Part shown: positions 3,482 to 62,283 of the stretch, one piece after another | Layout of the letters: each line of letters opens with the position of its first letter | How positions within the stretch are numbered: the first letter of the stretch is position 1 | NCBI GenBank assembly: GCA_041666545.1 | Contig: JBAYGS010000005.1 | Location: 18,842 to 82,841, forward strand | Origin: Minisyncoccota bacterium | GTDB lineage: Bacteria; Patescibacteriota; Minisyncoccia; Phycocordibacterales; JBAYGS01 | DNA length: 64,000 nt | Direction of reading: 5' to 3' | Translations under genes and position numbers: made by a program | The notes under the pieces: model-generated | The model's input: the letters and a program-made list of their open reading frames with translations, nothing else | Databases searched by the model: none | Told to the model about the DNA's origin: nothing

Positions 3482-3820
3482 ATGAAAAGAATCGAGGCCG
3501 TAATTCAACCGCACACTTTGGATGATGTGAGAAAGGCGCTCATCGCAATCGGCGTGGAAGGCATGACGGTTTTTGAGGCCAAAGGCTTCGGCCGACAACA
3601 CGGCCACACCGAAATCTATCGGGGTAGTGAATACGATTACCATTTCGTGCCGAAAATTTATATCTTGTTGATGGTCAAAAAGTCCCAAGTGAAACAGGTG
3701 GTCGCGACTATTCGCGAAGCAGCCAACACCAAAAAAATCGGCGCCGGCAAAATCTTCGTCTCTCCCCTCGAGGACGCGATCCGAATTCGCACCAACGAAG
3801 ACGGTGAAGGGGCTCTTTAG
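3482..3820 (+). CDS. glnB: Nitrogen regulatory protein P-II (GlnB/GlnK family)
   Basis: MKRIEAVIQPHTLDDVRKALIAIGVEGMTVFEAKGFGRQHGHTEIYRGSEY...GKIFVSPLEDAIRIRTNEDGE matches E. coli GlnB closely. The T-loop GFGRQxGHTExYRG and Tyr51 are conserved. Confidence 0.85.
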   Translation: MKRIEAVIQPHTLDDVRKALIAIGVEGMTVFEAKGFGRQHGHTEIYRGSEYDYHFVPKIYILLMVKKSQVKQVVATIREAANTKKIGAGKIFVSPLEDAIRIRTNEDGEGAL

Positions 3821-3832
3821 AAAGGAAACCTC

Positions 3833-4420
3833 ATGACTGCCGAAAAACTGCTTGAGACAATCGAAATCTATCAGAATTTTTTTGTCGAGTCGGGTTTCAA
3901 AAAGGCCGGGCAACTGCACGACGAGCTCCCGGCCTTCCCACAGGTGAGGACGGCGGAGGCGCCATTTAGAGAGGAAGGAGCGATTCCTGAAGAACTACTT
4001 GAGGCAATCGAAACCTACCGGAAATTCTTCGTCGAATCAGGCTTCAAGAAAACTGAACACCTGCACGACGAACTTCTAACCAGCGACCAGTCCGGGTTCG
4101 AACACTGCCACGGAATGCTGGACCGAATGGTCAAGTTTGTTCAAGAAGGGCGGTTGGAAAAAGCTTTTCGCTGGCTCGGCTTTATCCAAGGTTTCCTCTG
4201 GTCAAGGCGAGTTTTCGCCCTAGCCGAACACAATGACAAGGCCGGATTTGAGCACTGCCACGGCATGCTGGACCCAATGGTTAGATTCGTTCATGAAGGA
4301 AGGTTGGAAAAAACTTTCCGTTGGCTTGGCTTTATCCAGGGTTTCCTCTGGGCCCATCGGATCTACACCTTGGCCGAAATCAAAGACCATAATCGGTCCA
4401 AAGGTCTGCTTGACCCTTAG
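3833..4420 (+). CDS. Hypothetical protein built from two pairs of internal tandem repeats (FFVESGFKK...LHDEL x2; GFEHCHGMLDxMVxFVxEGRLEKxFRWLGFIQGFLW x2)
   Basis: Direct tandem duplication is visible at both the protein and DNA level (3840-3920 vs 3990-4070; 4085-4230 vs 4235-4385). The gene starts 13 nt after the glnB stop. Confidence 0.5.
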   Translation: MTAEKLLETIEIYQNFFVESGFKKAGQLHDELPAFPQVRTAEAPFREEGAIPEELLEAIETYRKFFVESGFKKTEHLHDELLTSDQSGFEHCHGMLDRMVKFVQEGRLEKAFRWLGFIQGFLWSRRVFALAEHNDKAGFEHCHGMLDPMVRFVHEGRLEKTFRWLGFIQGFLWAHRIYTLAEIKDHNRSKGLLDP

Positions 4421-5892: not shown

Positions 5893-5936
5893 TTTTCCCC
5901 ACTACCCACTACTTACTACTAACTACTAACTAATTC

Positions 5937-6281: not shown

Positions 6282-6317
6282 AATTTGGATTCAAGATTCA
6301 TGATTCAGGAATAAGCA

Positions 6318-6352
6318 CCAAAAGACCGCTCGGAAGCGGTTTTTTGGTGCGC
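6318..6352 (+). terminator. Rho-independent terminator after rplT
   Basis: GCACCAAAAGACCGCTCGGAAGCGGTTTTTTGGTGC is a hairpin followed by a T-run. Confidence 0.6.
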
Positions 6353-9702: not shown

Positions 9703-9933
9703 TATACCAAATACAAACTGCGAGCCGAAGCTCGCAGTCTAAAGTGGGTTACCAAAGATTATTCCCTAGTAAAGCTAGGTGGGTGTCCTGTGGCAAAGAC
9801 CAAGGTAATTGCCAACTCCAGACTCCCTGAAAATTTATTTAGAGAGTTAATCTTCAGTAACCCAACTTATTATAACTCCGTGGGTGTCACGATAGAACAG
9901 TGGATAACAATTTAAAGCACGCGGCCAAGCAGA

Positions 9934-9970
9934 AGTATATAGTATTAGGTATATGGTATATGGTATGGAG
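9934..9970. repeat. GGTATA-rich repeat (AGTATATAGTATTAGGTATATGGTATATGGTATGG)
   Basis: Near-identical copies in inverse orientation at 11733-11775 and 20858-20896. Degenerate relatives at 22292-22325, 26463-26500, 37838-37880, 54366-54392 and 54505-54530. Confidence 0.6.
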
Positions 9971-10299
9971 AAGGGAGACCTTAAAACAAATTCAGAGATT
10001 TGTTCGGGTAAAGAAAAAACCGCATGAGCGGATGTTTAGAAAGTTTCTAATTTAGACAGCAACCACATCGCTGTGGTTGCTGTGTAAGTGGAGGATAGCA
10101 CTGCACAAGGTTAAGTTTAAGTGGGCTTCGCAAAGACAAACATTTGAAGATCCGGAGACGCTCAGCTGTTTGCTTTAGTTTGAATCCCTAAAAATTTTTT
10201 AATATATCTTGGCAGTTAACCATCCTCTTCCCATTATAGCATAAAAAACGATTTGTCAACACTAAAAGTTGATAAACCGGTGTATAAGCTGTGCACAAA

Positions 10300-10340
10300 A
10301 AGTGGATAAAGCCGGTTACGGCTTTATCCACTTTTTATTC
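10300..10340. terminator. Bidirectional rho-independent terminator (perfect 13-bp stem GTGGATAAAGCCG/CGGCTTTATCCAC with T-runs on both sides); it terminates ndk on the minus strand
   Basis: The hairpin is flanked by TTTTTATT on the plus strand and TTTTTGTG on the minus strand. Confidence 0.6.
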
Positions 10341-10378
10341 GTGTCATTCGTCTCCATTCGTGTATTTGTGTCGTGTTC
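10332..10378. repeat. Stop-codon-abutting repeat TTCGTGTCATTCGTCTCcATTCGTGTATTTGTGTCGTGT
   Basis: Four copies, all in one orientation and each ending at the stop codon of a minus-strand gene: 10332-10378 (ndk), 14655-14700, 19294-19335 (rplO) and 23436-23478 (rplN). Confidence 0.6.
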
Positions 10379-10985: not shown

Positions 10986-11122
10986 AAGTTAGTGAGTAGT
11001 TAGTAGTAAGTAGTCAGTAGAAACGACATGAAGACATTCTAGCTCAAAATCTACCTCAGGACGAGGGATTGACATCTGATACCTAGTATGTTAGGGTGAC
11101 CAAAGAGAAAGGATAGAATACT

Positions 11123-11689: not shown

Positions 11690-11730
11690 CAGCACAAACC
11701 GGCGCGCCGCGCGCCGGTTTTTTTAATTCT
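11690..11730. terminator. Bidirectional terminator between two convergent genes (AACCGGCGCGCCGCGCGCCGGTTTTTTT)
   Basis: GC-rich perfect hairpin with flanking T/A runs. Confidence 0.65.
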
Positions 11731-11761
11731 TTTCCCTATACCATATACCCTATACCTAATA

Positions 11762-14500
11762 CTATATACTTCCCTTCTGGTATTTCTTCATAATCTCCGC
11801 TTCCACCTCGGCCCGGTCTTTGCCGTGAGTGAGATAAGAAAGCTCCTTCAATTTTTCCACTTTAGCCAAATCGCCTCTAGCCGGTGGCAAAGTCTCGATG
11901 CTAAAAGGTTTGACGGCCTTCCCGTTTACCAAGAGTTTCAAATAGGCATTGCGGTTGTCCAAATTCATAATGTCGCGAGCCGTAAAAACTGGAGCAAACT
12001 GTTTTTCCAGATACTCGGCATCATCGGCCCCAACCCGAAAGGCAGCAATTGAACCGACGTTACCGAAGACGGCATCTTGAATCTTTTCATCAAGTTGAGC
12101 GATAAACTGATGAGCAATATTTAGGCCAAGTTTGTATTTGCGCGCCTCGGAGAGAATAGTGGCAATCGAATCGGTGGTAATATTCTGAAATTCGTCGATG
12201 TAGAGATAGAAAGGCGGTAAATCTTGACCAAACGAATCTGAACGAGACAAGGCGGCCATTAAGATCTTGCCAACCAAAATGAGGCCGATCAAGTTGGCAT
12301 TGATGTCGCCGAGCCTACCCTTTGAAAGATTGACCAGCATAATCTTTTTCTTATCCATGATTTCCCGGAAATTAAAGGAGGATTTCTCCTGAGCAATCAC
12401 CGGGCGCATGATTTCGTTAGACAAAAAGACATCAAATTTGCTCGTGATGTAAGGCACGATGTTGGCAAGCGAGGCCTCCCCGCCGGCCTTATCGGCAATC
12501 TCGCGCCAGAATTGGACGACAATCGGATTTTTGCAACGGGAAAGTTTCAGCTCACGAAAAGCTTTGTTGGAAAGCACACGCGAAACATCAAGCAAAGTAT
12601 TCCCCGTCTCCGGATCTTCAATGACGAGCATCGTGGCATTTCTAAAATACTGCTCGAACATCGGACCACCGGCCGTTTTCATATCAAACAGCTTATTGAA
12701 AATCGACATCATCTCGTTGACTACAAAAGTTTTTTGCTCCGGAAAGCGGGTATCATATTCAAGCATGTTCAAAGCAATCGGCCTCGCGGTATAGGCCGGA
12801 TCGAAATAGATGACATCTTCGTATCTGTTTGGCGGGACCGTTGCCAGAATATCCTGAATATCAGAGCCGTGCGGGTCAATCACGCAAACACCCTCTCCGT
12901 TTAGAATATCCTGCACCGCCATATTCTTGAGCAAAGTCGATTTACCGGTACCGGTTTGGCCGATAGTGTAGAAATGGCGCAGACGGTCCTCCTTGGCCAT
13001 GAAAACTTTGGTCTCAGCTCCGCGGTGGCGATTAACCCCGATAATCGTGCCGGTTTGAGAAAGCTCGAGTGGTGCCGGAGCTGTGCCAGCCTTAGTCTGT
13101 TTGAGTTGAGGCGAGGCCTTACCACTCGTCGTCGGCAAATGGATGAGAGTAGTAAGCTCTTTTAAGTTGAGAGGCATAATCTGATCTTCGGTAAAAACTC
13201 GGAAGGCGAAATTCCTAAGCAACAATTTCTGAATCGAGCCTTTTTTCTCGATAAACTGGATTTTATTGCCGTGAGTATCTTCCAACTGATTGAAGGCTGA
13301 CTCCAGGTGAGACAAAATTTCTCGGGCCCGCAAAACCGTATCCGCCGAAACAACAATGCGGATAACCACTTCCGCGATTGTACTGCTAGTTTTGGCCGTG
13401 ATGTTGTCGACGGCTTGTTTATCAATTATCGGTGGCGTGCCATCATCTTTTTTCTTCGGCTTCTCCACACCTTTGAAAAATTCAACGAAATGTGTCCCAA
13501 GGCCTTTTGAGCCGACTACCGCCTCACTGACTTTCACCCCTTCTTGAATCTTGGCAATGGCCCGTTTATAGCGCTTAATGTAAAAATCATCAGACGACCT
13601 GATTAAAAACTGGACGGCCGCACCCTCACCACTTTTTCTAATCTTGGAGAAGGCATTTAAAAGAATGTTGAGAGGATCGTAATCAAAATTCTCATAGGTC
13701 TTGAGAGAAAAGGCCGATTCTTTGACCAAATCCGCGTAGGCACCAATCGCCACCCCTTTTTCATTAAAAATATTGTAGTCATCATGCTTCTCGCTGATTT
13801 TGGCATCAGGAAAAACTGAAAGCACTTGTTTTTCAAACAAATCGGCTTTGCTAATCGGCACCGCCGCGTAAATCACTGACTCTTCGCTCTCATTGGAATT
13901 CGCAATTTCAAAAGAAAAGTAATTTTTGTCGGAATCGCCGTCGTTCGTGATTGCCAAAAGTCCGGAGTAAAGTTGCTCCATGCTGGAAATCTGCTCTTTT
14001 AGATTTTTCTTGCCATCCTCGGTGCTGGCCTCAGGTAAAAGAATCTCAAAAAGGGTCAGGTGAAGTGGTCGCCAAAGTGCGCTTTTGGGTTCGAAACCGG
14101 CAATCGGATAACCTGCACGGAGGTACTCGGAAATAAAACGATGAAAGTCGTCTTCGAGGTGGAGATTATCGAGCTTGTCCAAAATCGTGAGCGCATTCTT
14201 CAATCCTTTCTCTTGCAAAATACCCAACAATTCTTCGATTTTCCGATCGTGAGCTTCGGGGGAAAGTTTGAGCACAATCGCCTCGGCCGCTTCAGTGGAA
14301 ATTACCCTTTCCGGTGCAATTACCGCCGTAGCCGGCATTTCTTGGTAAGCACGGATAACTTCTTTTTCTGTCTCCAGCCGCTCAACGGAAGAGGCCTTGG
14401 CCAAACTCTCTTTTTTGGCCAACTCACTGCGCAAAAAGGCAATCTCTTCATGAGGTGAAGAAAAAGGTTTTTCCGGAGATGACAAAAGGCTCTCGGCCAT
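11762..14500 (-). CDS. Large P-loop ATPase of the FtsK/HerA superfamily with a VirB4/VirD4(TraG)-like C-terminal motor domain and a roughly 480-aa N-terminal region of unknown function
   Basis: Walker A HFYTIGQTGTGKSTLL and Walker B LYIDEFQN. A downstream RKYKLGLNIAHQFIAQL...GSIAAFRVGADDAEYL block is typical of type IV secretion and conjugation coupling ATPases. The protein is 912 aa. Confidence 0.6.
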   Translation of the reverse strand: MAESLLSSPEKPFSSPHEEIAFLRSELAKKESLAKASSVERLETEKEVIRAYQEMPATAVIAPERVISTEAAEAIVLKLSPEAHDRKIEELLGILQEKGLKNALTILDKLDNLHLEDDFHRFISEYLRAGYPIAGFEPKSALWRPLHLTLFEILLPEASTEDGKKNLKEQISSMEQLYSGLLAITNDGDSDKNYFSFEIANSNESEESVIYAAVPISKADLFEKQVLSVFPDAKISEKHDDYNIFNEKGVAIGAYADLVKESAFSLKTYENFDYDPLNILLNAFSKIRKSGEGAAVQFLIRSSDDFYIKRYKRAIAKIQEGVKVSEAVVGSKGLGTHFVEFFKGVEKPKKKDDGTPPIIDKQAVDNITAKTSSTIAEVVIRIVVSADTVLRAREILSHLESAFNQLEDTHGNKIQFIEKKGSIQKLLLRNFAFRVFTEDQIMPLNLKELTTLIHLPTTSGKASPQLKQTKAGTAPAPLELSQTGTIIGVNRHRGAETKVFMAKEDRLRHFYTIGQTGTGKSTLLKNMAVQDILNGEGVCVIDPHGSDIQDILATVPPNRYEDVIYFDPAYTARPIALNMLEYDTRFPEQKTFVVNEMMSIFNKLFDMKTAGGPMFEQYFRNATMLVIEDPETGNTLLDVSRVLSNKAFRELKLSRCKNPIVVQFWREIADKAGGEASLANIVPYITSKFDVFLSNEIMRPVIAQEKSSFNFREIMDKKKIMLVNLSKGRLGDINANLIGLILVGKILMAALSRSDSFGQDLPPFYLYIDEFQNITTDSIATILSEARKYKLGLNIAHQFIAQLDEKIQDAVFGNVGSIAAFRVGADDAEYLEKQFAPVFTARDIMNLDNRNAYLKLLVNGKAVKPFSIETLPPARGDLAKVEKLKELSYLTHGKDRAEVEAEIMKKYQKGSI

Positions 14501-14536
14501 AACAAAATTATACCGCGTCTTGGCGCGGATTCAAAA

Positions 14537-14652
14537 GTTGTTAAGAACCTTTACGAATAAGGCACACGAATAAAGTACGCGAATAGCGAAACCACGAATA
14601 CGCACACACGAATAAAAAGACAGTTGAGAACCCTTACGAATAGGTCGTGCGG
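14537..14652. repeat. Two inverted copies of the TTATTCGTGTGCCCTATTCGTAAGGGTTCTCAACT family flanking a phased array of five ACGAATA motifs at about 11-nt spacing
   Basis: acgaataaggc acacgaataaag tacgcgaatagcg aaaccacgaatacgc acacacgaataaaaag. Copy 1 spans 14537-14575 and copy 2 spans 14621-14652. Confidence 0.55.
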
Positions 14653-14711
14653 ATATTCGCGTCATTCGTCTCAATTCGTGTATTTGTGTCGTGTGCCGAA
14701 GTATTAAATAC

Positions 14712-16820: not shown

Positions 16821-17017
16821 GAATTAGTTTGTAGTTAGCAGTGGGTAGTGAGTAGTTAATGGAGACATAATAACAAGAAACTGGAGACTTAAATAGGACT
16901 TGACTTTTTGCCGATATTATGATACACTCAAAGGCAGTAAAGTCCTTTAGCATTTTAGTGCACAGAAACTCAACAACCTACCCGCCAAGCGGGTTACAGA
17001 AATCGGAGGAAATCAAT

Positions 17018-17825: not shown

Positions 17826-17878
17826 AGCAGTACCGCCGAAGTCCCAAAGGGACTTCGGCGGTTTTTCTCTATCTCAAA

Positions 17879-17960
17879 CTACCCACTACTCACTACTCAC
17901 TACAAATCCCGATGTCAGAAGTCGGGACCCCGACCTTTGTCTGACAAAGCGTCGGGGCTT
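17879..17960. repeat. Composite repeat: an ACTAC-rich leader repeat (CTACCCACTACTCACTACTCACTAC) plus a GC-rich nested palindrome element (CCCGAtgtcaga-aGTCGGGACCCCGAC-c-tttgtctgacaaaGCGTCGGGG)
   Basis: The GC-palindrome family also occurs at 27033-27090, 52843-52885 (inside recJ) and 55350-55400. Confidence 0.6.
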
Positions 17961-17963
17961 CTT

Positions 17964-19250: not shown

Positions 19251-19333
19251 TAATCCACGAATGAGGACGAATTACACGAATTTGGGTTTGAATTTATTTG
19301 TGTCATTCGCTTAAATTCGTAATTGGTGTCGTG

Positions 19334-20428: not shown

Positions 20429-20430
20429 AT

Positions 20431-20470
20431 GTTTTTATTCGTGTGCCCTATTTGCAAGGGTTCTTAACTT
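20431..20470. repeat. Intergenic repeat TTATTCGTGTGCCCTATTtGcAAGGGTTCTtAACT between rplR and rpsE
   Basis: Six members of this family: 14537, 14621, 20431, 21443, 22241 (inverted) and 25956. Confidence 0.65.
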
Positions 20471-20491
20471 AAAATTTCGATTACAATCTCA

Positions 20492-20839: not shown

Positions 20840-20896
20840 TGAATTTTATCTTTGGCTTTCATACCTTATACCATATACCTAATACTATATACCCCT

Positions 20897-21442: not shown

Positions 21443-21480
21443 TTTATTCGTGTGCCCTATTCGTAAGGGTTCTCAACTAT
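21443..21480. repeat. Intergenic repeat TTATTCGTGTGCCCTATTCGTAAGGGTTCTCAACT between rpsH and rplF
   Basis: Consensus copy of the six-member family. It abuts the rpsH stop and lies 13 nt from the rplF start. Confidence 0.65.
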
Positions 21481-21869
21481 TACCAGATTTTAAATAAAAC
21501 TTCGCCACCGACTTTTTCTTTCTTGGCCTCCTTATCGGTCAAAATTCCTTTTGGGGTCGAGAGCACGATCAAGCCTAAACCGCTCTTGAAAGATCGGATT
21601 TCTTTGGCGCCCTGGTAAACGCGCTTGGACGGTTTGGAGACACGGGCCACATCGTTGATTCGAGGTGTCTTACCTTCGGCATATTCGACTTCAGCCTCCA
21701 AAATCTTGTGGTTATTCTTGCGCTTCTTGGCAATTGATTTGAGAAAACCGTTCTTAACCAAAATATCTGCAATTGACTCCTTAATCGCCGAATGAGGTAC
21801 CACAACACTTCCCCGACCTGCGAGGCCGGCATTCTTAACTTTGATTAGAAAATCAGCGATTGGATCCAT
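21480..21869 (-). CDS. rpsH: 30S ribosomal protein S8
   Basis: MDPIADFLIKVKNAG... is canonical S8. Confidence 0.9.
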   Translation of the reverse strand: MDPIADFLIKVKNAGLAGRGSVVVPHSAIKESIADILVKNGFLKSIAKKRKNNHKILEAEVEYAEGKTPRINDVARVSKPSKRVYQGAKEIRSFKSGLGLIVLSTPKGILTDKEAKKEKVGGEVLFKIW

Positions 21870-21987
21870 AAAATAATTTAAAATTGAAAGGTCAAAATGG
21901 AAAATTGCAATTTAAAATCTAAAATTAGATTCTGAAAATTATTCAATTTTGCATTGTCATTTTTCATTTTGAGATTTACATTTTCCA
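21870..21987. repeat. AT-rich roughly 118-bp repeat between rpsZ and rpsH that ends with the exact 30-mer AATTTTTCATTTTGAGATTTACATTTTCCA
   Basis: The 30-mer is identical at 29349-29378. Related copies lie at 39925-39990, 61842-61897 and in the 5' leader of the four-helix-bundle gene (62264-62290). Confidence 0.6.
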
Positions 21988-22173
21988 CTACCATGATGAC
22001 TTCTTGATTCCCGGAATCATGCCTTCGTTGGCATACTCGCGGAAGCAAATACGGCAAAGGTCGAAGTCTCGCATATAGCCGCGCTTGCGACCACAGCGGA
22101 AACAACGGTTAGTAGCCCGAGTGGAAAATTTCGGTTTCTTTAACGATCTTGCTACTACTGATGTTTTTGCCAT
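21988..22173 (-). CDS. rpsZ: 30S ribosomal protein S14, type Z (zinc-binding)
   Basis: 61 aa with [20 protein letters not shown]. Confidence 0.9.
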
Positions 22174-22240
22174 AATAAATTAAAAAAGCTTGCAAAAGCT
22201 TGTCCGCGTATACTAGCAAACCAAGAAGAAGAATGCAAGG

Positions 22241-22280
22241 CAGGTTGAGAACCCTTACGAATAGGGCACACGAATAGGCC
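22241..22280. repeat. Inverted-orientation copy of the TTATTCGTGTGCCCTATTCGTAAGGGTTCTCAAC family, followed by a GGTATA-rich segment (22292-22325)
   Basis: GGTTGAGAACCCTTACGAATAGGGCACACGAATAGG. Confidence 0.6.
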
Positions 22281-22531
22281 AGCCGGCAAAAGTATAGGTA
22301 TAAGGTATAAGTATAGGTATGGGAAATGGGTCCAAAAGTCAAAAAGCACGGGAGAAGACAAGATAAAAGGCGCGCAACTGCGTTGCGCGCCTTGACTCTC
22401 ACCCTATATTCCTAGAAAGCTCATCAGCAACCAAGGCCTCGATAAATCGGCACAAGCCAAGCAGACAAAAACGGCCTACTGGCCGTTTTTGTCTGTCCTT
22501 ATTCCTAAATCATGAATCTTTATTCCTAATT

Positions 22532-23062
22532 CTATTTCTTGAGAGGAAAACCTAAGTATTCTAGAAAAGCTCTGGTCAATTTTTTGTCGCCGGAAGTGGT
22601 GACGATTGTGATAGCGAGACCGAAAACATCTTTCAACTCTTCATCGGAAGTTTCAGGGAAAATTGTGTGTTCTTTGATGCCGATAGTGTAATTGCCCATA
22701 TCATCAATGGCGGTGGCATTAAGTCCACGAAAGTCTTTGGTTCGAGGCAGGGCCACATTTAAAAGTTTGTCCAAAAAGCCGTACATCCGAGCACCCCGAA
22801 GCGTGATCTGATAACCAACCAAATCGCCTTCTCGAGACTTGAAGGTGGCGATTGATTTCTTGGCAGAACGAGGAGCGGCCTTCTGGCCAGTAATTTTACC
22901 CAAACGATCAGCAATCAATTCCAATTTTTTCTTATCTTTAAGAGAGCCGACGCCGGTCGAAATCACCACCTTGGAGAGGCGTGGCGCTTGCATCGGATTT
23001 TTGAAGCCAAACTGACCTTTCAGCGATTCAAAAGCCTTATTCTGTTTTTCTTTGGTATTCAT
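22532..23062 (-). CDS. rplE: 50S ribosomal protein L5
   Basis: Sequence and position. Confidence 0.9.
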   Translation of the reverse strand: MNTKEKQNKAFESLKGQFGFKNPMQAPRLSKVVISTGVGSLKDKKKLELIADRLGKITGQKAAPRSAKKSIATFKSREGDLVGYQITLRGARMYGFLDKLLNVALPRTKDFRGLNATAIDDMGNYTIGIKEHTIFPETSDEELKDVFGLAITIVTTSGDKKLTRAFLEYLGFPLKK

Positions 23063-23076
23063 AATTAGTTAGTTTA

Positions 23077-23108
23077 GAAGTTGAAAAGTTTGAAAGTTTG
23101 GAAGTCTC
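23077..23108. repeat. AGTTTAGAAGTTGAAAAGTTTGAAAGTTTGGAAGTCTC repeat immediately upstream of the rplE start
   Basis: TTGGAAGTTTGGAAG family (see 1860-1960, 27973-28054, 52884-52907, 55401-55420). Confidence 0.55.
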
Positions 23109-23121
23109 AAGATTACCCAAG

Positions 23122-23421: not shown

Positions 23422-23474
23422 ATATGTATTCTTAGATTCGTGTCATTCGTCTTAATTAGTGAATTGGTGTCGTG

Positions 23475-23846
23475 TTATACGATTTCAGCCGCCAAAGAAG
23501 CGATTTTCTGGTAACCCTTTTCAGCCAATTCTCGAGGAATCGGTCCAAAAACACGGCCGGCAATCGGATCCATCTTGCCTTTTTCCAAAATCACCACAGC
23601 ATTCTCATCGAAACGGACATAGGAACCGTCCAGGCGTCTTAGGGCCTTGGTCTGACGAACCACTACCGCCTGCAAGACATCCTTTTTCTTTACCGCCTTT
23701 CTTGGTTCGGCTTTCTGAACTGACAAAACCACCTGGTCACCGATTGAAGCGTAGCGCTTTTTGGAGGCACCGAGCACCTTGAAAATGCGTCCGATTTTAG
23801 CCCCGGAGTTGTCGACGATTTTCACAATGGTGCGTGGTTGAATCAT
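23475..23846 (-). CDS. rplN: 50S ribosomal protein L14
   Basis: MIQPRTIVKIVDNSGAK... is canonical L14. Confidence 0.9.
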   Translation of the reverse strand: MIQPRTIVKIVDNSGAKIGRIFKVLGASKKRYASIGDQVVLSVQKAEPRKAVKKKDVLQAVVVRQTKALRRLDGSYVRFDENAVVILEKGKMDPIAGRVFGPIPRELAEKGYQKIASLAAEIV

Positions 23847-23908
23847 ATTGGTTAGTTAGTAGTGAGTAGTTGGTAGTTTGTAGTTTGTAGTTGAAGAAAA
23901 GAAAATAC

Positions 23909-25565: not shown

Positions 25566-25955
25566 CTAACTGTTTCCTTTGCTCTTAATTTGTTTCTTGG
25601 TTTTTGGTGTTTGGTTATTCTCCAGTTCGCTTAGAACTAGGGTAATATGGCTAGTTCGCTTATTGATACCGGAAGCGCTACCTCGAGCTCGCGGCATGAT
25701 TCGCTTTAAAATCACCCCAGCATCGACAGTGACACCTTTAACCTTAAGATTCTCGGCGGACAGGTTTTGACTATTCTTGGCATTGGCTACCGCTGACATT
25801 AGCAATTTTTTAATCGGGGCGCTAGCTCGCTTGGCCAAAAAATCCAATTCAGCAATCGCCAAATTAACCGGCTTGCCTTTGATCAAATCGGCAACAAGTC
25901 TAACCTTACGTGGTGATTGTCGGTAATTATTCAGTTTTGCGGTAATTGTTGTCAT
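25566..25955 (-). CDS. rplV: 50S ribosomal protein L22
   Basis: Sequence and position. Confidence 0.85.
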   Translation of the reverse strand: MTTITAKLNNYRQSPRKVRLVADLIKGKPVNLAIAELDFLAKRASAPIKKLLMSAVANAKNSQNLSAENLKVKGVTVDAGVILKRIMPRARGSASGINKRTSHITLVLSELENNQTPKTKKQIKSKGNS

Positions 25956-25992
25956 TGTTTTATTCGCATGCCCTATTCGTAAGGGTTCTTAA
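25956..25992. repeat. Intergenic repeat TTATTCGcaTGCCCTATTCGTAAGGGTTCTtAACT that exactly fills the gap between the rpsS stop and the rplV start codon
   Basis: The start codon of rplV (25953-25955) and the stop of rpsS (25993-25995) directly flank the element. Confidence 0.65.
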
Positions 25993-26334
25993 CTATTTCT
26001 TAGCTTCGGTTGAAGCTTTAGCAGCCTGCGCAGAGGCAATCTCGGCTTGCTTCTTGGCAGCCTCGAGTTCCTTCTGCATCTTACCGCCGTGCTTAACGAA
26101 CTTGCGGGTTAAAGAAAATTCGCCCAATCGATGGCCAACCATGTCTTCAGAAATCAAAACTTCAATAAAATCCTTGCCATTATGAACGGCAAACTTAAAA
26201 CCAACCATTTCTGGAGAAATCTGGCAGGCCCGAGACCAAGTCTTAATTGGTTCAGACTTTTCAGGACGCTTGCCTGCTATCTTCTTTAGCAGCCTTTCGT
26301 CGACATATGGTCCTTTCTTAAGCGATCGTGTCAT
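25993..26334 (-). CDS. rpsS: 30S ribosomal protein S19 with a Lys/Ala-rich C-terminal extension
   Basis: [19 protein letters not shown]... is canonical S19. Confidence 0.9.
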
Positions 26335-26516
26335 AGGTTAGTTGGTAGTGAGTAGTTTGTAGTTATCAGAGACAACACCAAAACTACGCCCTTTATGTAA
26401 AAAGCTCCAAACGAGCTAGACGGATAGCTTAGCATAAGTCATTTTAAAGAGCAACTCTGGGCTGGTATAGGTATAAAGTATAAGTATAGGCTCAAAATAA
26501 GGGAGTTTTCACGCAC

Positions 26517-26550
26517 TTGACAATCTGACATATTGTATGATAAAATACTA
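26517..26550 (+). promoter_or_regulatory. Sigma70-like promoter (TTGACA ... TATGATAAAAT) for the inserted gene 26597..26968
   Basis: A TTGACA hexamer at 26517 is followed by an extended TG-N-TATGAT/ATAAAAT -10 region. A strong SD, AGGAGA, lies 4 nt before the ATG. Confidence 0.45.
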
Positions 26551-26596
26551 ATAGAGTTGGAATTTGGCAACAAACAAAAAACGAATAGGAGACAAC

Positions 26597-26968
26597 ATGA
26601 ACAATGTACACATCGCCCCCGGAAGCGTCGGCGCATCGGTTGGTTTTCGAGCCGGCCTGGCAACAGAAATGGCCGCGAAGATCCTGCAGCAGGACGCGCG
26701 AGACAAGCCTATCAAGGAATACCTTTTGAATACCGCCCCACCTTCAGTTCGCGAATGGATTCACGAAAATGGGGTGATTGATGATCTTTTCCATTATGGT
26801 TTCTCCAGCCGTCAGATGCGATTTGGTGAACCTTTGAACGACTCGGCGCATGTCTTGGGGGTCTGCGCCCAACTGGCAAAGGCCTGGAAAGGCCTGGTCC
26901 GGGTCACGGTGAGCAGCAACCCTGAACCACACCGTGTGGAAATCTTCTTCAGCGCCACACGACTTTAG
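26597..26968 (+). CDS. Hypothetical protein (123 aa) encoded on the opposite strand between rpsS and rplB; GC-rich relative to its surroundings
   Basis: ATG at 26597 has a canonical SD, unlike the neighbouring r-protein genes. It has its own promoter and the terminator GGCCCGCGACAGCAGTCGCGGGCCTTTTTATTT at about 26985-27020. Confidence 0.5.
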   Translation: MNNVHIAPGSVGASVGFRAGLATEMAAKILQQDARDKPIKEYLLNTAPPSVREWIHENGVIDDLFHYGFSSRQMRFGEPLNDSAHVLGVCAQLAKAWKGLVRVTVSSNPEPHRVEIFFSATRL

Positions 26969-27032
26969 GCAGGTGGCGTAGCAAACGGACAGGCCCGCGA
27001 CAGCAGTCGCGGGCCTTTTTATTTCTTCTAAG

Positions 27033-27090
27033 TAAGCCCCGACGCCTTGGTCGGGACCCCGGCCTCGTCCGACGAGCGTCGGGGCTAATG
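27033..27090. repeat. GC-rich nested-palindrome repeat AGCCCCGACGCcttGGTCGGGACCCCGgCCtcgtccgacgaGCGTCGGGGCT
   Basis: Same family as 17905-17960, 52843-52885 and 55350-55400. Confidence 0.6.
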
Positions 27091-27114
27091 AAGCTATCCG
27101 GCTAATCAAGCTAA

Positions 27115-27972: not shown

Positions 27973-28054
27973 GGTTAGTTTTAAGTTTAAAAGTTTGGAA
28001 GTTTGGAAGTCTTAACTCTTAACTTCTGAACTTCAGAACTAAAGCGAAGCGTTA
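27973..28054. repeat. TTAGTTTTAAGTTTAAAAGTTTGGAAGTTTGGAAGTCTTAACTCTTAACTTCTGAACTTCAGAACTAAAGCGAAGCG repeat filling the rplW-rplB gap
   Basis: It abuts the rplB start codon and shares GTCTTAACT...AACTnAAGCGnAGCG with the ssrA upstream copy. Confidence 0.55.
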
Positions 28055-28467: not shown

Positions 28468-29256
28468 TTATTTGGTTGCGGTTTTAGCTTTCTTGGCTGC
28501 AACTTTCTTGGTTGGCTTAGTTTTGACAGTTTTTGCTTTACCTTTAGTCTCTTTTATTTCTGCAGACTTGGTCTCCGCCTTTTTAGCAGCCTTGCCTTCA
28601 AGTTTGCTTAGAAGAAAAGCCAAACTGTTTTCGGCGCCGACGATTATCAAATGCTTGTAGGAAAGGACATCCACCGGATTGATGTTTCGAACATTATCAA
28701 ACTTGATATTGCTCAAGTTGCTGAAACTCTTGGAAAGATTCTTGTTGGTTTCATCGCTTACAATGTAAGCCGAGTTATTATTCTTTCTCAAGACATTCTC
28801 AAAACCCTTGATTTTGGAGAAATTGGACAAAGTTTCAACAGCCACCCTGGTTTTTGGCTCGCTGATTGAAAGACTTTCGGTAAACAAGACTTCACCTTCC
28901 TTGTTTTTGCGGGACAAGATGGTGAAAAGAGCCTTAACCTTGGCCTTCTTGTTGATTTTACGAGAAAAATTCTTGTCGTTTCGAGGACCGTGAGCCACGC
29001 CACCACCTACCCAAATCGGAGAACGAGTTGAGCCGTGTCGGGCTCGGCCGGTACCCTTCTGTTGCCATGGCTTCTTGCCACCACCACGAACTTCACCTCG
29101 GGTTCTAGTGTGAGCAACCGGAGTTCTTTGGCTGGTCTCAATCGAAGTCACGACTTGATGAACCAAGTCGCCATTCCAAGGCAAGCCGAAGACGCTCTCC
29201 GGAAGTTTCAACTTTCCTGATTCTTTGCCGCTTTGATTGTAAATTGTTGTCTCCAT
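28468..29256 (-). CDS. rplD: 50S ribosomal protein L4
   Basis: [24 protein letters not shown]... is canonical L4, here with a Lys/Ala-rich C-terminal extension. Confidence 0.85.
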
Positions 29257-29261: not shown

Positions 29262-29386
29262 TAAATCAAAATTAAAATCTCAAAATTTAAAATGACAATG
29301 TAAAAGTCAAAATTGGATTCGGAAAAGTTTTAAATTTTAAATTATAATTTTTCATTTTGAGATTTACATTTTCCATTTAGTTGGAA
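29262..29386. repeat. AT-rich roughly 125-bp repeat between rplC and rplD, homologous to 21870-21987 and ending in the same 30-mer
   Basis: AATTTTTCATTTTGAGATTTACATTTTCCA at 29349-29378. The minus-sense strand contains a TTATAAT box. Confidence 0.6.
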
Positions 29387-29989
29387 TTATCCGATAATTT
29401 CAACTAAAGTTCCTCGTCGTCCTGGGATGGCACCGGAAATCGCGATGACATTTTCGGCCGCATTAACCTCGACAATCTTCAAATTCTTAATGGTGATTCG
29501 ATCGCTACCCATTCGACCGGCCATTCTCATACCTTTTGGAACCTTATTTCGGAGACCACCGCCGATTGAACCCGGCTCGCGCTCGGAGTGCTTCTGGCCG
29601 TGAGATCGAGGACCACCTTTAAAACCGTGTCGCTTCACAACACCCTGAAAGCCCTTACCCTTTGAAACTGCCGAAACGGTGACCAAATCCCCGGCCGCAA
29701 AAGTTTCCGGCTTAATCTCGTCACCAACTTTCAAATCTTTAACGTCTCTAAATTCTTTAAGCAAAGCGAACTTTCCGGAAGTTTTTAGGTGGCCGAGTTC
29801 AGCCTTGGTCAAATTCTTCTCATGCTTGGAACCAAAACCAACCTGAACAGCATCATAACCGTCTTTTTCAGAAGTTTTGACTTGAGTGACGATAACCGGA
29901 CCGGTCGAAATAAGGGTGACAGGGGTCACTTTGCCGGCATCAGACCAAACCTGGGTCATATTTAGTTTTGTACCTAAGATAAATTTCAT
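29387..29989 (-). CDS. rplC: 50S ribosomal protein L3
   Basis: MKFILGTKLNMTQVWSDAGK... is canonical L3. Confidence 0.9.
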   Translation of the reverse strand: MKFILGTKLNMTQVWSDAGKVTPVTLISTGPVIVTQVKTSEKDGYDAVQVGFGSKHEKNLTKAELGHLKTSGKFALLKEFRDVKDLKVGDEIKPETFAAGDLVTVSAVSKGKGFQGVVKRHGFKGGPRSHGQKHSEREPGSIGGGLRNKVPKGMRMAGRMGSDRITIKNLKIVEVNAAENVIAISGAIPGRRGTLVEIIG

Positions 29990-35503: not shown

Positions 35504-35611
35504 TTTTAAATGATACCACGCTACCAGAAAGCCAAAAACCGCCTCTCGGCGGCTTTTGGCTTTCTGGATTGTGCGCTTGAATCTTGAATCTAAATTCTTG
35601 AATCATTCGAC

Positions 35612-37753: not shown

Positions 37754-37924
37754 AAATGATAATAATTAAAAAAGCACAAAGGTGCCGTGTTAGACCTATA
37801 GATTACAAGAAAGGCCGGAAAAATGCAAAGTAGCAGATGGTATGGAGTATAAAGTATATGGTAGATGGTATGAAAAAAGCAGATATGTAAAGGCCCGCGG
37901 AATCCGATTCCGCGGGCCAAACTG

Positions 37925-39423: not shown

Positions 39424-39507
39424 GTTTTAGATTGATTTAAGAATTATGATTCACGATTCAAGAATTTAAGACTTTTCATTCCTGAATCTTGAATCCTGAA
39501 TCTGACT

Positions 39508-39921
39508 TTAGGCTTTCTTCGGTCTCTTGGTACCGTACTGACTGCGACCCTTGCGACGAGTCTCGACGCCGGTGGTATCGAGGACGCCACGGACAACCTG
39601 ATAGCGCAGACCGACATCCTTAACGCGACCACCACGAAGCATTACCACAGAGTGCTCTTGAAGGGCGTGGCCCATACCTGGAATATAAGCGGTGACCTCC
39701 AAACCGTTGGTCAAGCGAACGCGAGCAATTTTTCGAATAGCGGAGTTAGGCTTTTTCGGAGTCTTGGTGGTCACTTTAGTACAGACACCTCGTTTGAAAG
39801 GCGAAGGGAAAAAGACCGGTCGGTTTTTAACAGTATTGAAAGAACGCAAAAGTGCCACCGACTTTGGTTTGCGGTAGGTCTTGGTCCGTCGTCTTTTAAC
39901 TAGTTGATTGATGGTTGGCAC
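39508..39921 (-). CDS. rpsL: 30S ribosomal protein S12 (apparent GTG start)
   Basis: [11 protein letters not shown]...PNSAIRK... is canonical S12. Confidence 0.9.
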
Positions 39922-39924: not shown

Positions 39925-39990
39925 ATTTAATGGAAAATGGAAATCTCAAAATGAAAAATTATAAGATCTCAAATTAAACTAAAATTAGCC
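39925..39990. repeat. AT-rich repeat (inverted copy of the TTTTCATTTTGAGATTTcCATTTTCC family) upstream of rpsL; contains a TTATAAT box in the rpsL sense
   Basis: GGAAAATGGAAATCTCAAAATGAAAAATTATAAGATCTCAAA. Confidence 0.55.
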
Positions 39991-40035: not shown

Positions 40036-40094
40036 CAACCCCGTTAGAGACAGCTCGTCGCCCCGACGACCTGTCTCTAACGGGGGCAACCCCT
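40036..40094. repeat. Long perfect hairpin GCAACCCCGTTAGAGACAG-ctcgtcgccccgacgac-CTGTCTCTAACGGGGGCAAC, a short member of the CCCGTTAGAGA TIR family; likely terminator of the surface-protein gene
   Basis: 19-bp stem. It lies between the stop of 40122..42662 and the rpsL promoter region. Confidence 0.6.
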
Positions 40095-51720: not shown

Positions 51721-53535
51721 CTATATTATGTCAACAATCCGCAGACGCAGTTCTGGGTACTGCTTGAAAACACTTTTTTCCATTGTCGCCACCAAGTTGA
51801 CCGCCTCACCAATTTCAACCTTAGTTTTAAACTCTTTGGGATTCATAAAAAATCCAATGGCAGAAACTTTATCACCATTTTCTTTTTTAAAAACCAATTC
51901 TAAGTGATTTTTCTCCTTGCCAAATTGTTTTAAATCAAAAATCTTAGCCGATTCAAAAAGAAAAACCGGTTTGGGATTACCAACACCGAACGGCGAGAGC
52001 TTGTCCACCAAATCCCAATTGGACCAATTTACACCATCAAAACTTAGTCTGGCATCAACGAAGACAGTCTGATCCAGAGCCTTGCGATTAGCTCGAGCCT
52101 GATCAAAAGCCTTTTCCAACTCTGTCTCTAAAAGGTGAATCTTTTCTGCTACGACACTGAAACCGCCAGAAAAATCGTGACCGCCATATTCCAAGAATAT
52201 GCCCGGGGCAACTTCTGACATCAGGCCAACTAAACTGGTGACTCCATCTGAACGACAAGATCCTTTGATGACATTTTCGCCATCTCTCCCCCAAAGAAAA
52301 ACAGGGCAAGAATGCTCTTCTGCCAAAGTATTGGCCGCGAGACCCAAAAGTGAAGGGCGCCAGTTTGGATTACCTAAAACAATTACTTTTTTATCTCGAT
52401 TAGCATAGCGCTCTGCGACGGCGTGCTTCATCTCTTTGACCATCGAAGCCACGATTCCTTTCCTCTCGTCATTAATCTTATTCAAATGATCGCTTACTTG
52501 GTCAGCCTCAACCTCATCCGTTGTGGCAAAAAGCCTGAAAGCGTCCATCGGCTCACCCATTCTTGAAGCGGCATTGATTCTGGGAGTAATCATAAAGCCG
52601 ATATCATCCTCGTTTAACGTTCTTTGATTGATTTTCAGCTTTCGCAATAATTTCATTAAGCCGACTCGGGGAGATTTTCTTAAAACTTTCATCCCGTAGT
52701 GAGCGAGCGCTCGATTTTCGCCCACAAGTGGCACCATGTCAGAAAGCGTGGCCAAGCCGGCCATGTCGAGCAACCATTTTTCCCATCCCTTTGGGACGGG
52801 AGAAATGGTTGCTTGATTCAAGTCACAAGTTTCAAGCCCCGACGCTTGCCGCAAGGTCGGGGTCCCGACCGGAGCGTCGGGATTTGGAAGTTTAGAAGTT
52901 TGAAGACGAAAGATCAGAGCCTGCACCAATTTAAACGCCACACCCGCACCACAGAGACTCTTGTTGGGATAATCACAGCCCGGCTGATTTGGGTTAACAA
53001 TAGCAAAAGCCTCTGGCGCGCCGTGACCATTAACTAAGTGATGATCGGTGACAATCACATCTAGACCGTTAGCTTGAGCAAAATTAATTTCGGAAATATT
53101 GGCGATGCCACAATCAACCGTAATTAAAAGTCTGGCCCCCGACTCAACAAATTGTTTGATCGCATTTTCATTCAACCCAAAACCCTCATTGTGCCGATGC
53201 GGAATATAGTTTTCAAAATTAGTGAAACCGATTTTCCGGAAAAAATCATGCAGGATCACTCCGCCTGGAATCCCGTCGGCATCATAGTCACCAAAAATTA
53301 TTATCTTTTCACCCAATTGGAAAGCCTTCAGAATTCGGTCCACCGCCTTCCCCATATCTTTTATCAAGAACGGATCGTGGAGATGCTTCTCATAATTAGG
53401 ATTGAGAAAGGCTTCGGCCTGATCGCCGCCCTTGATCTCCCTATAGGCTAACAACTTCTTAAGCAAAGACGGATATTGGCCGAGCTGTTGGTGTTCCTGA
53501 TCTGAAATTTCCTCCCGGACGGCATATTTTTTCAT
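51721..53535 (-). CDS. recJ: Single-stranded-DNA-specific exonuclease RecJ, carrying an in-frame insertion derived from an intergenic repeat
   Basis: The DHH motif is VIVTDHH, with DHHA1 and a C-terminal OB region. The repeat insertion encodes ...KLPNPDAPVGTPTLRQASGLE... between the VAFKLVQAL and LLDMAGLATLSDMVPL blocks. Confidence 0.85.
   Translation of the reverse strand: MKKYAVREEISDQEHQQLGQYPSLLKKLLAYREIKGGDQAEAFLNPNYEKHLHDPFLIKDMGKAVDRILKAFQLGEKIIIFGDYDADGIPGGVILHDFFRKIGFTNFENYIPHRHNEGFGLNENAIKQFVESGARLLITVDCGIANISEINFAQANGLDVIVTDHHLVNGHGAPEAFAIVNPNQPGCDYPNKSLCGAGVAFKLVQALIFRLQTSKLPNPDAPVGTPTLRQASGLETCDLNQATISPVPKGWEKWLLDMAGLATLSDMVPLVGENRALAHYGMKVLRKSPRVGLMKLLRKLKINQRTLNEDDIGFMITPRINAASRMGEPMDAFRLFATTDEVEADQVSDHLNKINDERKGIVASMVKEMKHAVAERYANRDKKVIVLGNPNWRPSLLGLAANTLAEEHSCPVFLWGRDGENVIKGSCRSDGVTSLVGLMSEVAPGIFLEYGGHDFSGGFSVVAEKIHLLETELEKAFDQARANRKALDQTVFVDARLSFDGVNWSNWDLVDKLSPFGVGNPKPVFLFESAKIFDLKQFGKEKNHLELVFKKENGDKVSAIGFFMNPKEFKTKVEIGEAVNLVATMEKSVFKQYPELRLRIVDII
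52843..52907. repeat. GC-palindrome plus TTGGAAGTTT repeat (CAAGCCCCGACGCTTGCCGCAAGGTCGGGGTCCCGACCGGAGCGTCGGGATTTGGAAGTTTAGAAGTTTGAAGACG) lying inside the recJ coding sequence, in frame
   Basis: Same composite element as the intergenic copies at 17905-17960, 27033-27090 and 55341-55423. The spurious ORF 55285..55518 translates the 55341 copy to LNPDASVGTPTLKQASGLS, matching the recJ insert KLPNPDAPVGTPTLRQASGLE. Confidence 0.7.
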
Positions 53536-53545
53536 TTTTAGATTA

Positions 53546-53677
53546 TATCATCCCGTTAGAGATCTTTTGTTAGGAAGCCTTAGCTGGACGATAAATTCCC
53601 ACCAAATATCGACGGCCAGAGATTCACCGTGAGCAACGGTCATCTTGATGACCTATCTCTAACGGGATATCATCCCG
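53546..53677. mobile_element. MITE-like element of about 130 bp with TIRs ATCATCCCGTTAGAGATC / GATCTCTAACGGGATATCATCCCG, in the recJ upstream region
   Basis: Inverted repeats flank about 100 bp. Same TIR family as 29990-30108 and 54391-54508. Confidence 0.65.
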
Positions 53678-53737
53678 CAACTAGACCAATTGACACATTT
53701 CCAAAATTGACTATCCTTTGCAAAGGAAAGGAACTTT

Positions 53738-54322: not shown

Positions 54323-54390
54323 AGTAAAATCAATTTGACCCTCGTCCACCTAACGGATGAGGGCTTTTTTCTTCATACCATATACCCTAT

Positions 54391-54508
54391 CCCGTTAGAA
54401 GTCGCGGACGCTAACAACAGTTGTCTGTTTGCGGAAAATGTTTAATACAGATAGCGGAGCGTAGTTTGTTGTATAATGATTGGATGTCCGCGTCCTACTT
54501 CTAACGGG
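54391..54508. mobile_element. MITE-like element of about 118 bp with TIRs CCCGTTAGAAGTCGCGGACGC / GTCCGCGTCCTACTTCTAACGGG; contains an outward-facing TGTTGTATAAT extended -10 box upstream of the HIT gene
   Basis: Inverted repeats flank about 75 bp. TTGTTGTATAATGATTGG sits 60 nt upstream of the HIT start. Confidence 0.65.
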
Positions 54509-54535
54509 ACTTATACTTAATACTATCTACTTTTT

Positions 54536-55292: not shown

Positions 55293-55340
55293 AATAGCAC
55301 AATCTCACCACGACGTCAACAGGGGCCACTGCCACCTTTT

Positions 55341-61841: not shown

Positions 61842-61897
61842 ATTAAAATTGAAATCTAAAAATGGAAAAAGACATATAAAAAGTAAAAAATTACCGT
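61842..61897. repeat. AT-rich repeat (TTCCATTTTTAGATTTCAATTTTAATTTG in pilC sense) related to the 21870/29262 family, abutting the pilC start
   Basis: Compare TTTTCCATTTTGACCTTTCAATTTTAAATTATTTT-ATG upstream of rpsH. Confidence 0.5.
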
Positions 61898-62263: not shown

Positions 62264-62283
62264 TTTTAGATTTCCATTTTACA

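Follow-up and report, generated by a model that had tools for sequence, protein, structure and literature searches.

The spacers of the ribosomal-protein operons in a stretch of Minisyncoccota bacterium DNA (contig JBAYGS010000005.1; 64,000 nucleotides, hereafter the window) contain AT-rich repeats that recur, as an inverted pair, around a small gene for a four-helix-bundle (4HB) protein between the type IV pilus genes pilB and pilC. We read these repeats, with a probability of about 70%, as copies of a single palindromic element family, similar both to the intervening sequences (IVSs) of rRNA genes and to miniature inverted-repeat transposable elements (MITEs), which has spread through the Patescibacteria (Candidate Phyla Radiation, CPR) and colonised the spacers between cistrons. 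The window contains one full-length copy with a frameshifted open reading frame (ORF), two ORF-less copies with two arms each and one solo arm, which gives seven arms at four sites. Judged by their sequence similarity, the arms of the window and those of other genomes share common descent; the two-arm layout, with or without the ORF, occurs across the CPR, and the copies reside between co-directional cistrons. On this reading, it is an S23p-type IVS acting as a multi-copy, MITE-like intercistronic element; the IVS kind itself is known. The element is undescribed in the literature that we searched, from which subscription journals were largely missing, and it may have been described earlier. 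Most genes of the window lie on the minus strand, and the copies and their host genes, the latter identified with Pfam, are as follows.

62229-62287, minus strand: 5' arm of the full-length copy, beginning 3 nt after the pilB stop codon
61898-62263, minus strand: 4HB ORF, 121 aa, PF05635 23S_rRNA_IVP (Pfam E 8.5e-15)
61840-61891, minus strand: 3' arm of the full-length copy, lying after the 4HB stop codon and before the start of pilC
21874-21990, minus strand: E1, palindromic, no ORF, filling the rpsN/rpsH spacer; in gene sense, 5' arm 21948-21990, loop ~21917-21947, 3' arm 21874-21916
29262-29378, minus strand: E2, palindromic, no ORF, in the rplC/rplD spacer; in gene sense, 5' arm 29337-29378, 3' arm 29262-29304
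39926-39984, plus strand: E3, solo arm, A-rich on the plus strand, the only arm found there with nhmmer
62284-63915: pilB
60621-61841: pilC
21988-22173: rpsN (S14)
21480-21869: rpsH (S8)
29387-29989: rplC (L3)
28468-29256: rplD (L4)
39508-39921: rpsL (S12), GTG start

Between pilB and pilC, arms of the same kind as those of E1 and E2 enclose the 4HB ORF in inverted orientation. The full-length form of the element measures ~445 nt and consists of a 5' arm, an ORF of ~122 aa and a 3' arm that directly follows the stop codon and for the most part repeats the 5' arm in reverse complement. Each arm comprises about seven tandem heptamers of the AAAATNN type (AAAATGT AAAATGT AAATCTC AAAATGA AAAATGA CAATGTA AAATTTA). 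Within the 5' arm at 62229-62287, a leader of 22 nt is followed by the 4HB start codon (62261-62263) and roughly the first ten codons (MENxxxKFKN), a layout shared by 10 other 4HB elements. The two arms are complementary at 81% over 48 nt (3' arm against 62234-62281), and the minimum-free-energy fold of 61830-62300 pairs 62250-62281 with 61844-61875 (z -4.1, 19 contiguous pairs); stems in the folds contain 12-19 contiguous A-U-rich pairs. The encoded protein also matches PDB 2rld (E 1.2e-13). A +1 frameshift at a run of five G residues (61944-61948) replaces the last ~17 residues of the window protein and truncates its native C-terminal helix, while the alternative frame, LGEISNIIASSILTLKHKR followed by a stop, restores the C-terminus typical of the family. 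The identical frameshifted protein is found on contigs of three other assemblies.

E1, E2 and E3 all lack the 4HB ORF. E1 and E2 each consist of two inverted arms of ~45 nt around a loop of ~30 nt, and they align with each other at 81% identity across 116 nt; as an inverted repeat, E2 has 45-nt arms that are 80% complementary, with 15 nt between them. The preliminary description of this DNA, made from the sequence alone, included neither this palindromic structure nor the inverted arm pair around the 4HB ORF; it had reported a 30-mer common to the three repeats. That string is real and present in all three, but it is 28 nt long (TTTTTCATTTTGAGATTTACATTTTCCA): it is exact on the plus strand at 21960-21987 and 29348-29375, and occurs with one mismatch on the opposite strand at 39931-39958, so that E3 is inverted relative to E1 and E2, a point absent from the preliminary description. 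The number of such 28-mers expected by chance is 0 (100 dinucleotide shuffles). The S8 ATG stands 4 nt beyond the end of E1, and E3, read in the sense of rpsL, is a U-rich arm of the 3' type that ends 7 nt before the GTG start. The frames that open at the arm ATG run for 29 codons in E1 and 22 in E2, stopping 4 and 25 nt short of the element end. A conserved mini-ORF from the arm ATG to the element end was considered and set aside as unconvincing, the median open frame being 17 codons and one third reaching the end. The solo arm in the rpsL leader (39929-39964) is complementary to the 5' arms of E2 (97% over 36 nt, 29342-29377) and E1 (89%, 21954-21990); as an observation on sequence alone, the leader of the str operon could therefore pair in trans with transcripts of the S10 and spc operons.

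Homology among the arms was assessed with a hidden Markov model (HMM) built solely from genomes and loci outside the window and searched with nhmmer. It matches both arms of E1 (21948-21989, E 5e-10; 21875-21916, E 4e-6) and of E2 (29337-29377, E 2.5e-8; 29267-29304, E 2e-5), the solo arm E3 (39929-39963, E 2.5e-7) and the 5' arm of the 4HB gene (62244-62285, E 4e-7); its match to the arm upstream of pilC (61844-61869) is weak (E 0.11). Local alignments were compared with a null chosen to be harsh, a Markov chain of first order whose training set was the arms (mean 12.1, standard deviation 3.0, 99.9th percentile 24, maximum 28 of 5000). Against E1, E2 and E3, the 5' arm of the 4HB gene scores 35, 30 and 27; for the arm upstream of pilC, alignment with the matching 3' arms gives 26 (E1) and 28 (E2). 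The preliminary description had quoted two strings, both present as written: one lies at the 4HB start (reverse complement of 62250-62287), the other upstream of pilC (61842-61897). It had proposed that the repeats are homologous to the 4HB leader and first codons and also precede pilC. Both proposals hold: the 4HB start aligned with the three repeats scores above the 99.9th percentile of this null, as does the arm before pilC, where the HMM is weak. Partner arms in other genomes were located with iterated nhmmer arm models; RNA duplex folding was dropped for this purpose, having been captured by G+C-rich decoys.

GTDB species-representative genomes contain 100 exact matches to a 25-mer of the arm, AAATGKAAATCTMAAAATGRAAAAT, and the 80 of these matches that were listed come from about 50 assemblies. 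Nearly all carry titles of Patescibacteria, Parcubacteria, Moran-, Falkow-, Magasanik-, Campbell-, Colwell- or Portnoybacteria, or Saccharibacteria; a few, six or seven loci, bear record titles of other groups (Gammaproteobacteria, Bdellovibrionales or Omnitrophota), given here as titled only. The 25-mer has no match in 2.9 M viral contigs. Arms in these loci end in (T/A)AAT... and ...ATT(A/T), and conservation drops sharply 7-8 nt outside the 25-mer. Together, the loci contain 83 arm pairs, the window's three included, with an inter-arm distance of at most 130 nt in 69 pairs, 152-226 nt in 6 and 360-448 nt in 8. It is the 360-448-nt class that contains the 4HB ORFs, whereas the short class (10-120 nt) has none; ORF-less copies retain within the arm the ATG and about the first ten codons of the 4HB frame. 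Arms of the family adjoin 9 of the 11 4HB ORFs in the 25-mer loci, and at three loci (L016, L080 and L010) divergent 4HB genes lie between inverted arms that have a different tandem-repeat sequence and that in L080 match at 32 of 35 positions. Copy number per genome can be considerable: the exact 25-mer stands at 8 or more loci of assembly JAHKAK01, and counts of 6-8 loci occur in several assemblies. Within the window itself, no further 4HB gene was found among the small ORFs, and no additional arm occurs in the 10 kb of the source contig upstream of it.

The association of arms with the ORF also holds when the arms play no part in the choice of loci. A search with the window 4HB protein returned 2343 clusters, the best 80-88% identical, and the top homologues come from Yanofsky-, Terry-, Moran-, Portnoy- and Doudnabacteria and from Paceibacterota. 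Seven homologues were picked by protein similarity alone (L104, L109, L115, L116, L122, L208 and L218), in contexts that comprise PrgI/TraC-like genes, CTP synthase and an M48 peptidase, PilT/PilC, a pseudopilin and PilB, and three with unannotated neighbours. In all seven, a 5' arm encloses the start codon and a 3' arm follows the stop codon, in L109 after an intervening 65-aa ORF. The 4HB ORF is co-oriented with its neighbours in every case, both in these seven and in the 11 of the 25-mer set, which include the window's and one without a gene called downstream. More generally, 68 arm pairs have a called gene no more than 400 nt away on each side, and in 64 of these the flanking genes are co-directional; for ORF-less copies, orientation relative to transcription shows no significant preference (37 against 27).

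The junctions that carry a copy are partly shared and partly different among genomes. Those between the genes for S14 and S8 and for L3 and L4 are occupied in several distant genomes, one of them titled Saccharibacteria; the genome SURF_53 has copies between the genes for L23 and L2 and for L22 and S3, where the window has none, and others have them at S8/L6 and S7/EF-G. The pilB/pilC junction holds an ORF-bearing copy in the window and an ORF-less one in another genome (L099, 4618-4735), and a third locus has an ORF-less copy just upstream of pilC (L039, 17-134). Insertion between translation-apparatus genes, as the preliminary description put it, applies to E1-E3, but the element also resides in operons for type IV pili, in conjugation-like operons and in others. 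Pilus operons recur among its hosts, as in the arrangements pilT-4HB-pilC-4HB' (L208, 4HB genes at 2001-2372 and 3689-4054) and pseudopilin-4HB-pilB (L218, 1194-1565). The second 4HB protein of L208, encoded next to pilC, matches both PF05635 and PF22296 bAvd.

23S rRNA IVSs and their S23p (4HB) ORFs have been known for more than 30 years, and their classic site, used by the IVSs of Coxiella, Salmonella and Leptospira, is helix 45. One ORF-less copy of the present family, in a Ca. Colwellbacteria genome (L028), lies within the 23S rRNA gene, immediately 5' of GGUAGGGGAGCGUUC; this is the terminal loop of a hairpin of the large-subunit rRNA, Rfam model positions 1206-1226, and the copy is in helix 45. 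Another (L071) sits inside a group I intron of a 16S gene, and several are nested at the tip of other palindromes. In assembly CAIMKX01, elements occupy the tip of the palindrome GGGAATCCAGTG / CACTGGATTCCC at no fewer than five loci (L067, L070, L080, L086 and L094). An Rfam scan of the window returned tmRNA as the only known RNA family, which places the repeats outside every such family.

The helix 45 copy, together with the match to the architecture of the Coxiella IVS, identifies the repeat family as an IVS-type element that resides mostly between protein-coding cistrons. In Coxiella, the IVS consists of an S23p ORF enclosed by terminal inverted repeats, which pair into a 28-bp stem; tandem heptamers (GACAGAT) precede the start codon, and RNase III excises the element (PMC4990558). 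The same source documents 4HB/S23p ORFs as cargo of rRNA IVSs, in agreement with the preliminary description. Like the 23S IVSs with S23p ORFs (Coxiella burnetii, Leptospira, Brucella, Xanthomonas-type protein), the present element has a ~120-aa PF05635 ORF between stem-forming terminal inverted repeats, tandem heptamers just upstream of the start codon and an absent or poor Shine-Dalgarno (SD) sequence, and one of its members is in helix 45. Its location otherwise differs: the four window copies are in mRNA spacers instead of 23S helix 25 or 45, and most others also lie between protein-coding cistrons. Unlike the rRNA IVSs, the family is multi-copy, with abundant ORF-less derivatives. Its arms are AT-rich heptamer arrays of ~45-50 nt with conserved mismatches, as against the near-perfect 28-bp stem of Coxiella, and its 4HB protein is under strong purifying selection, as against a decaying ORF in Coxiella. 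Between lineages, the 4HB genes show pN of 0.16-0.24 and pS of 0.77-0.89 (saturated), with a median dN/dS of 0.09 for the 11 pairs with computable dS; these genes are old and their protein is under purifying selection. Footprints of an IVS-type element between translation genes is therefore a good description of the window repeats, given the arm homology, the 4HB cargo, the arms elsewhere and the helix 45 copy. The preliminary description had called them decayed footprints, a term that needs correction: the copies are not simply decayed, as 45 of the 46 positions of the E1 5' arm are conserved in a distant genome (see below).

By analogy with the rRNA IVSs, we suggest that transcripts of the host operon include the element and that the element's arms pair into a long AU-rich stem that would bury the 4HB start codon. 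RNase III would cut this stem, as it does with S23p-type rRNA IVSs, and such a cut could make insertion tolerable both in rRNA and between cistrons, where it would split the polycistronic mRNA. We favour an origin of the ORF-less copies from ORF-bearing ones by MITE-like internal deletion; capture of the ORF by a pre-existing hairpin is the alternative, which we do not favour.

Several results weigh against a mobile element of this kind. The 25-mer loci were selected for carrying the 25-mer, which is a source of ascertainment bias. Arms are conserved far beyond the adjacent essential genes: compared with the S14/S8 copy of SURF_53 (L019), the E1 5' arm is 98% identical (45/46) and the 3' arm 88% (29/33), while the S8 coding DNA is 59% identical and the ribosomal proteins of the two genomes are 45-72% identical. 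An arm with ~98% identity beside a gene with 59% demands explanation, and recent transfer fails to supply one because the synonymous sites of the 4HB genes are saturated. The S14/S8 and L3/L4 junctions are occupied in distant genomes whose ribosomal proteins are 34-65% identical, and a comparison of presence and absence at S14/S8 in close relatives is out of reach because the best S8 match from metagenomes is only 57% identical. Pairing has left little trace in the arms: the sense strand has no excess of G·U over A·C mismatches (61 against 52, p 0.45), and there is no compensatory change, an arm being less complementary to its own partner (0.758) than arms are across elements (0.794). This deficit arises because there are two distinct conserved arm types, ...GTAAATCTCAAAATG... 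and ...AAAAATCAAAATG..., which are mismatched every 7 nt; the second is usually the 5' arm in ORF-bearing copies. The hairpins of E1 (-22.7 kcal/mol, z -1.3) and E2 (-26.4 kcal/mol, z -2.3) are marginally more stable than shuffles. With the pairing tests negative and the mismatches between arm types conserved, what is conserved is the sequence and not the pairing. Finally, no target-site duplication is present at the ends of 69 copies, whose flanks are mildly A/T-enriched, and no transposase was seen beside any copy. The conservation of the arms beyond their neighbours and the recurrence of junctions fit a host-level function as well as selfish spread. Arm conservation is the point most in need of explanation: strong element-level selection with ongoing turnover, concerted evolution among copies and host-level function could each account for near-invariant arms.

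The strongest alternative takes the arms to be a sequence-specific intercistronic control site selected by the host, bound for instance by the 4HB pentamer or another factor, which would tune processing or translation of the SD-less downstream cistron, the 4HB gene being a regulator inside its own site. Near-invariance of the arms despite saturated 4HB synonymous sites, their identity beside a much less conserved S8 gene, arm-type mismatches that are conserved and not compensated, and recurrent junctions among such distant genomes are in keeping with this view. So too are the 3' arms that end 4-10 nt before start codons lacking a GGAGG-like motif, and a 4HB gene under purifying selection that is always co-oriented with its host operon. 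A fixed regulatory site is, however, difficult to reconcile with the distribution of copies: the arm next to S8 is absent in 79 of 80 S8 relatives from metagenomes, the occupied junctions differ among genomes (L23/L2, L22/S3, S8/L6, S7/EF-G), the ORF-less copies lack a significant preference of orientation, and copies interrupt 23S helix 45, a group I intron and other palindromes, the behaviour of an insertion and not of a regulator of one particular gene. We therefore consider a host control site unlikely, though it deserves to be weighed.

A related and more speculative idea, to which we give little credence, is that the 4HB pentamer ring recognises its own heptamer arms as single-stranded RNA or DNA, that each subfamily has its own heptamer, and that the protein acts in trans on ORF-less copies, either mobilising them or controlling their processing or translation. 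TRAP is an example of a ring protein that reads tandem repeats. Such a cognate pair is suggested by the difference in arms among subfamilies, the heptamers that precede the S23p start codon in Coxiella, the conservation of arm sequence over pairing, and the purifying selection on a co-oriented protein. If it were true, the function of S23p, or IVS proteins, would become testable, and it could account for the other heptamer and octamer families in the ribosomal-protein spacers of the window.

An ordinary MITE, in which the arms are terminal inverted repeats for a transposase encoded elsewhere and the 4HB ORF is passenger cargo, seems to us decidedly improbable. The family does have the outward features of a MITE, being short and multi-copy (69 ORF-less pairs; at least 8 loci in JAHKAK01) with terminal inverted repeats, ORF-less and ORF-bearing size classes, and conserved ends (TAAT.../...ATTA) outside which conservation falls sharply. 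It lacks a target-site duplication in the 69 copies and an autonomous relative that encodes a transposase: the long form encodes only the 4HB protein, plus the 65-aa ORF in L109, and no copy has a transposase next to it. In addition, the start codon and first codons lie within the arm in every subfamily, which ties the ORF to the arms more closely than a passenger would be, and the ORF is invariably co-oriented with the host genes.

Correia elements are RNase III substrates. Like the Neisseria Correia elements (NEMIS) and the enterobacterial ERIC/IRU sequences, the present copies are imperfect palindromes of 100-150 nt, intergenic, often within operons, numerous and foldable in mRNA. They have no sequence relationship to either, show no duplication of TA or another target, carry in their long form a 4HB ORF and not a transposase, and differ in that their arm sequence is conserved across phylum-level CPR lineages. 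Repetitive extragenic palindromes (REPs) are G+C-rich hairpins of 20-40 nt with GTAG/CGTC heads, and their associated protein, RAYT, is an IS200/IS605-type Y1 transposase. REP/RAYT units (REPtrons) share with our element a protein gene between inverted copies of a short repeat that is also scattered without the gene in intergenic DNA; the repeats here, in contrast, are AT-rich heptamer arrays (18-20% G+C), and the protein is a 4HB (PF05635) with no known catalytic activity. Cyanobacterial short tandemly repeated repetitive (STRR) sequences are intergenic arrays of tandem heptamers, of which one genome can hold several sequence families, and resemble the present repeats in this respect, while phylum and sequences differ; to our knowledge, no description of STRRs presents them as inverted arms that flank a 4HB ORF.

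The protein points to another relationship. PF05635 proteins resemble bAvd, the accessory protein of diversity-generating retroelements (DGRs), in sequence and structure, both being pentameric four-helix bundles (PMC10053308). This likeness extends to the second 4HB protein of L208 with its PF22296 match, but the neighbours of the 4HB genes here are pilB/pilC, PrgI/TraC, CTP synthase and similar genes. No reverse transcriptase gene was found beside the 4HB gene in the window or among the called genes of the eight contexts examined, the whole window not having been searched for one, and no pair of template and variable repeats was seen.

The preliminary description had further proposed that TTATAAT boxes in the repeats act as internal sigma-70 promoters for rpsH, rplD and rpsL, and this we regard as very unlikely. 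TATAAT does occur in E2 and E3, and a scan gives more promoter matches than shuffles do (6 against 1.1, 4 against 1.1 and 2 against 0.5). Every match, however, has only 9-10 of 12 positions, and matches fall on both strands. E1 has TGACAAT in place of the box, the family consensus being ATGACAATG. In both sense-strand candidates, at 29283-29255 in E2 and 39949-39920 in E3, the -10 hexamer overlaps the start codon, which would place the transcript start within the gene. Chance resemblance among AT-rich, low-complexity spacers (18-20% G+C, with heptamers that inflate alignment scores, and with the weak HMM match upstream of pilC) is ruled out by the exact 28-mer, the external HMM matches of 1e-5 to 1e-10, the scores beyond the 99.9th percentile of the arm-trained null and the 100 exact 25-mer matches in other genomes.

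The origin and spread of IVSs with S23p ORFs, and the function of their protein, are unexplained, and the window shows the same kind of element mainly outside rRNA. If our reading is correct, its many copies form a large natural set in which to study how IVSs spread and whether the protein, a relative of the DGR accessory protein Avd, recognises the arms. The element interrupts operons that serve as phylogenetic markers. Many of the closest 4HB homologues lie on contigs of only 0.5-2 kb, so the element may also disrupt assembly; for its detection, either the 28-mer or the arm model would be a possible diagnostic.

The ribosomal-protein spacers of the window hold at least five or six further families of heptamer or octamer repeats, mostly directly upstream of SD-less starts and several of them palindromic:

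5893-5936, 10986-11020, 16821-16856, 17862-17906, 23847-23908, 26335-26364: TAGTNAG type
1902-1944, 23063-23121, 27973-28054 (hairpin): AAGTTTGG type
9932-9972, 11730-11772, 20857-20896, 37839-37875, 54367-54393: TATACC type
6282-6318, 22495-22537, 35570-35611, 39424-39507 (hairpin): GATTCAAG type
10334-10376, 14652-14694, 19293-19333, 23433-23475: ATTCGTG type

A search of ~1.2 Mb of further CPR loci detected none of these families, which may be related, as ORF-less forms, to 4HB-type elements other than the present one.

The window has further repeats. A G+C-richer repeat, GTTGAGAACCCTTACGAATAGGGCACACGAATA, occurs six times (21445-21477, 22244-22276, 20429-20472, 25954-25997, 14527-14572 and 14610-14655), and its first two copies form a perfect 33-nt inverted repeat around S14, E1 and S8. 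The adjoining L5/S14 spacer (22174-22531) is unusually long at 358 nt, within the expected spc operon, and contains a terminator-like symmetric hairpin (22463-22490), one of six similar AAAACCGCC...GGCGGTTTT hairpins. Long inverted repeats with the ends CCCGTTAGAGA...TCTCTAACGGG are present at 40040-40092, 53545-53680 and 54385-54520, one of them upstream of rpsL beside E3. A G+C-rich double-hairpin repeat, CCCGACG...GTCGGGACCCCGAC...GTCGGGGC, is found at 17900-17963, 27040-27100, 52834-52897 and 55338-55401; two of its copies are 64 nt long and 91% complementary. Similar CCCGNN...NNCGGGATACC mini-hairpins occur in the loop of the AT-rich element at loci elsewhere (L024, L025, L031, L035, L052 and L072).

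In the S10 operon, a 780-nt insert (26335-27114) separates L2 from the next ribosomal-protein gene and contains a good promoter-like site, TTGACA...17...TATGAT, an AGGAGA motif and an ORF on the opposite strand (~26597-26968), antisense inside the operon. The tmRNA (Rfam 118.9 bits; missed by ARAGORN) adjoins SmpB, the two lying at 1476-1859 and 1963-2409, and an ORF on the plus strand contains tandem coding repeats of 147-150 nt that are 75-77% identical (3835-4384).

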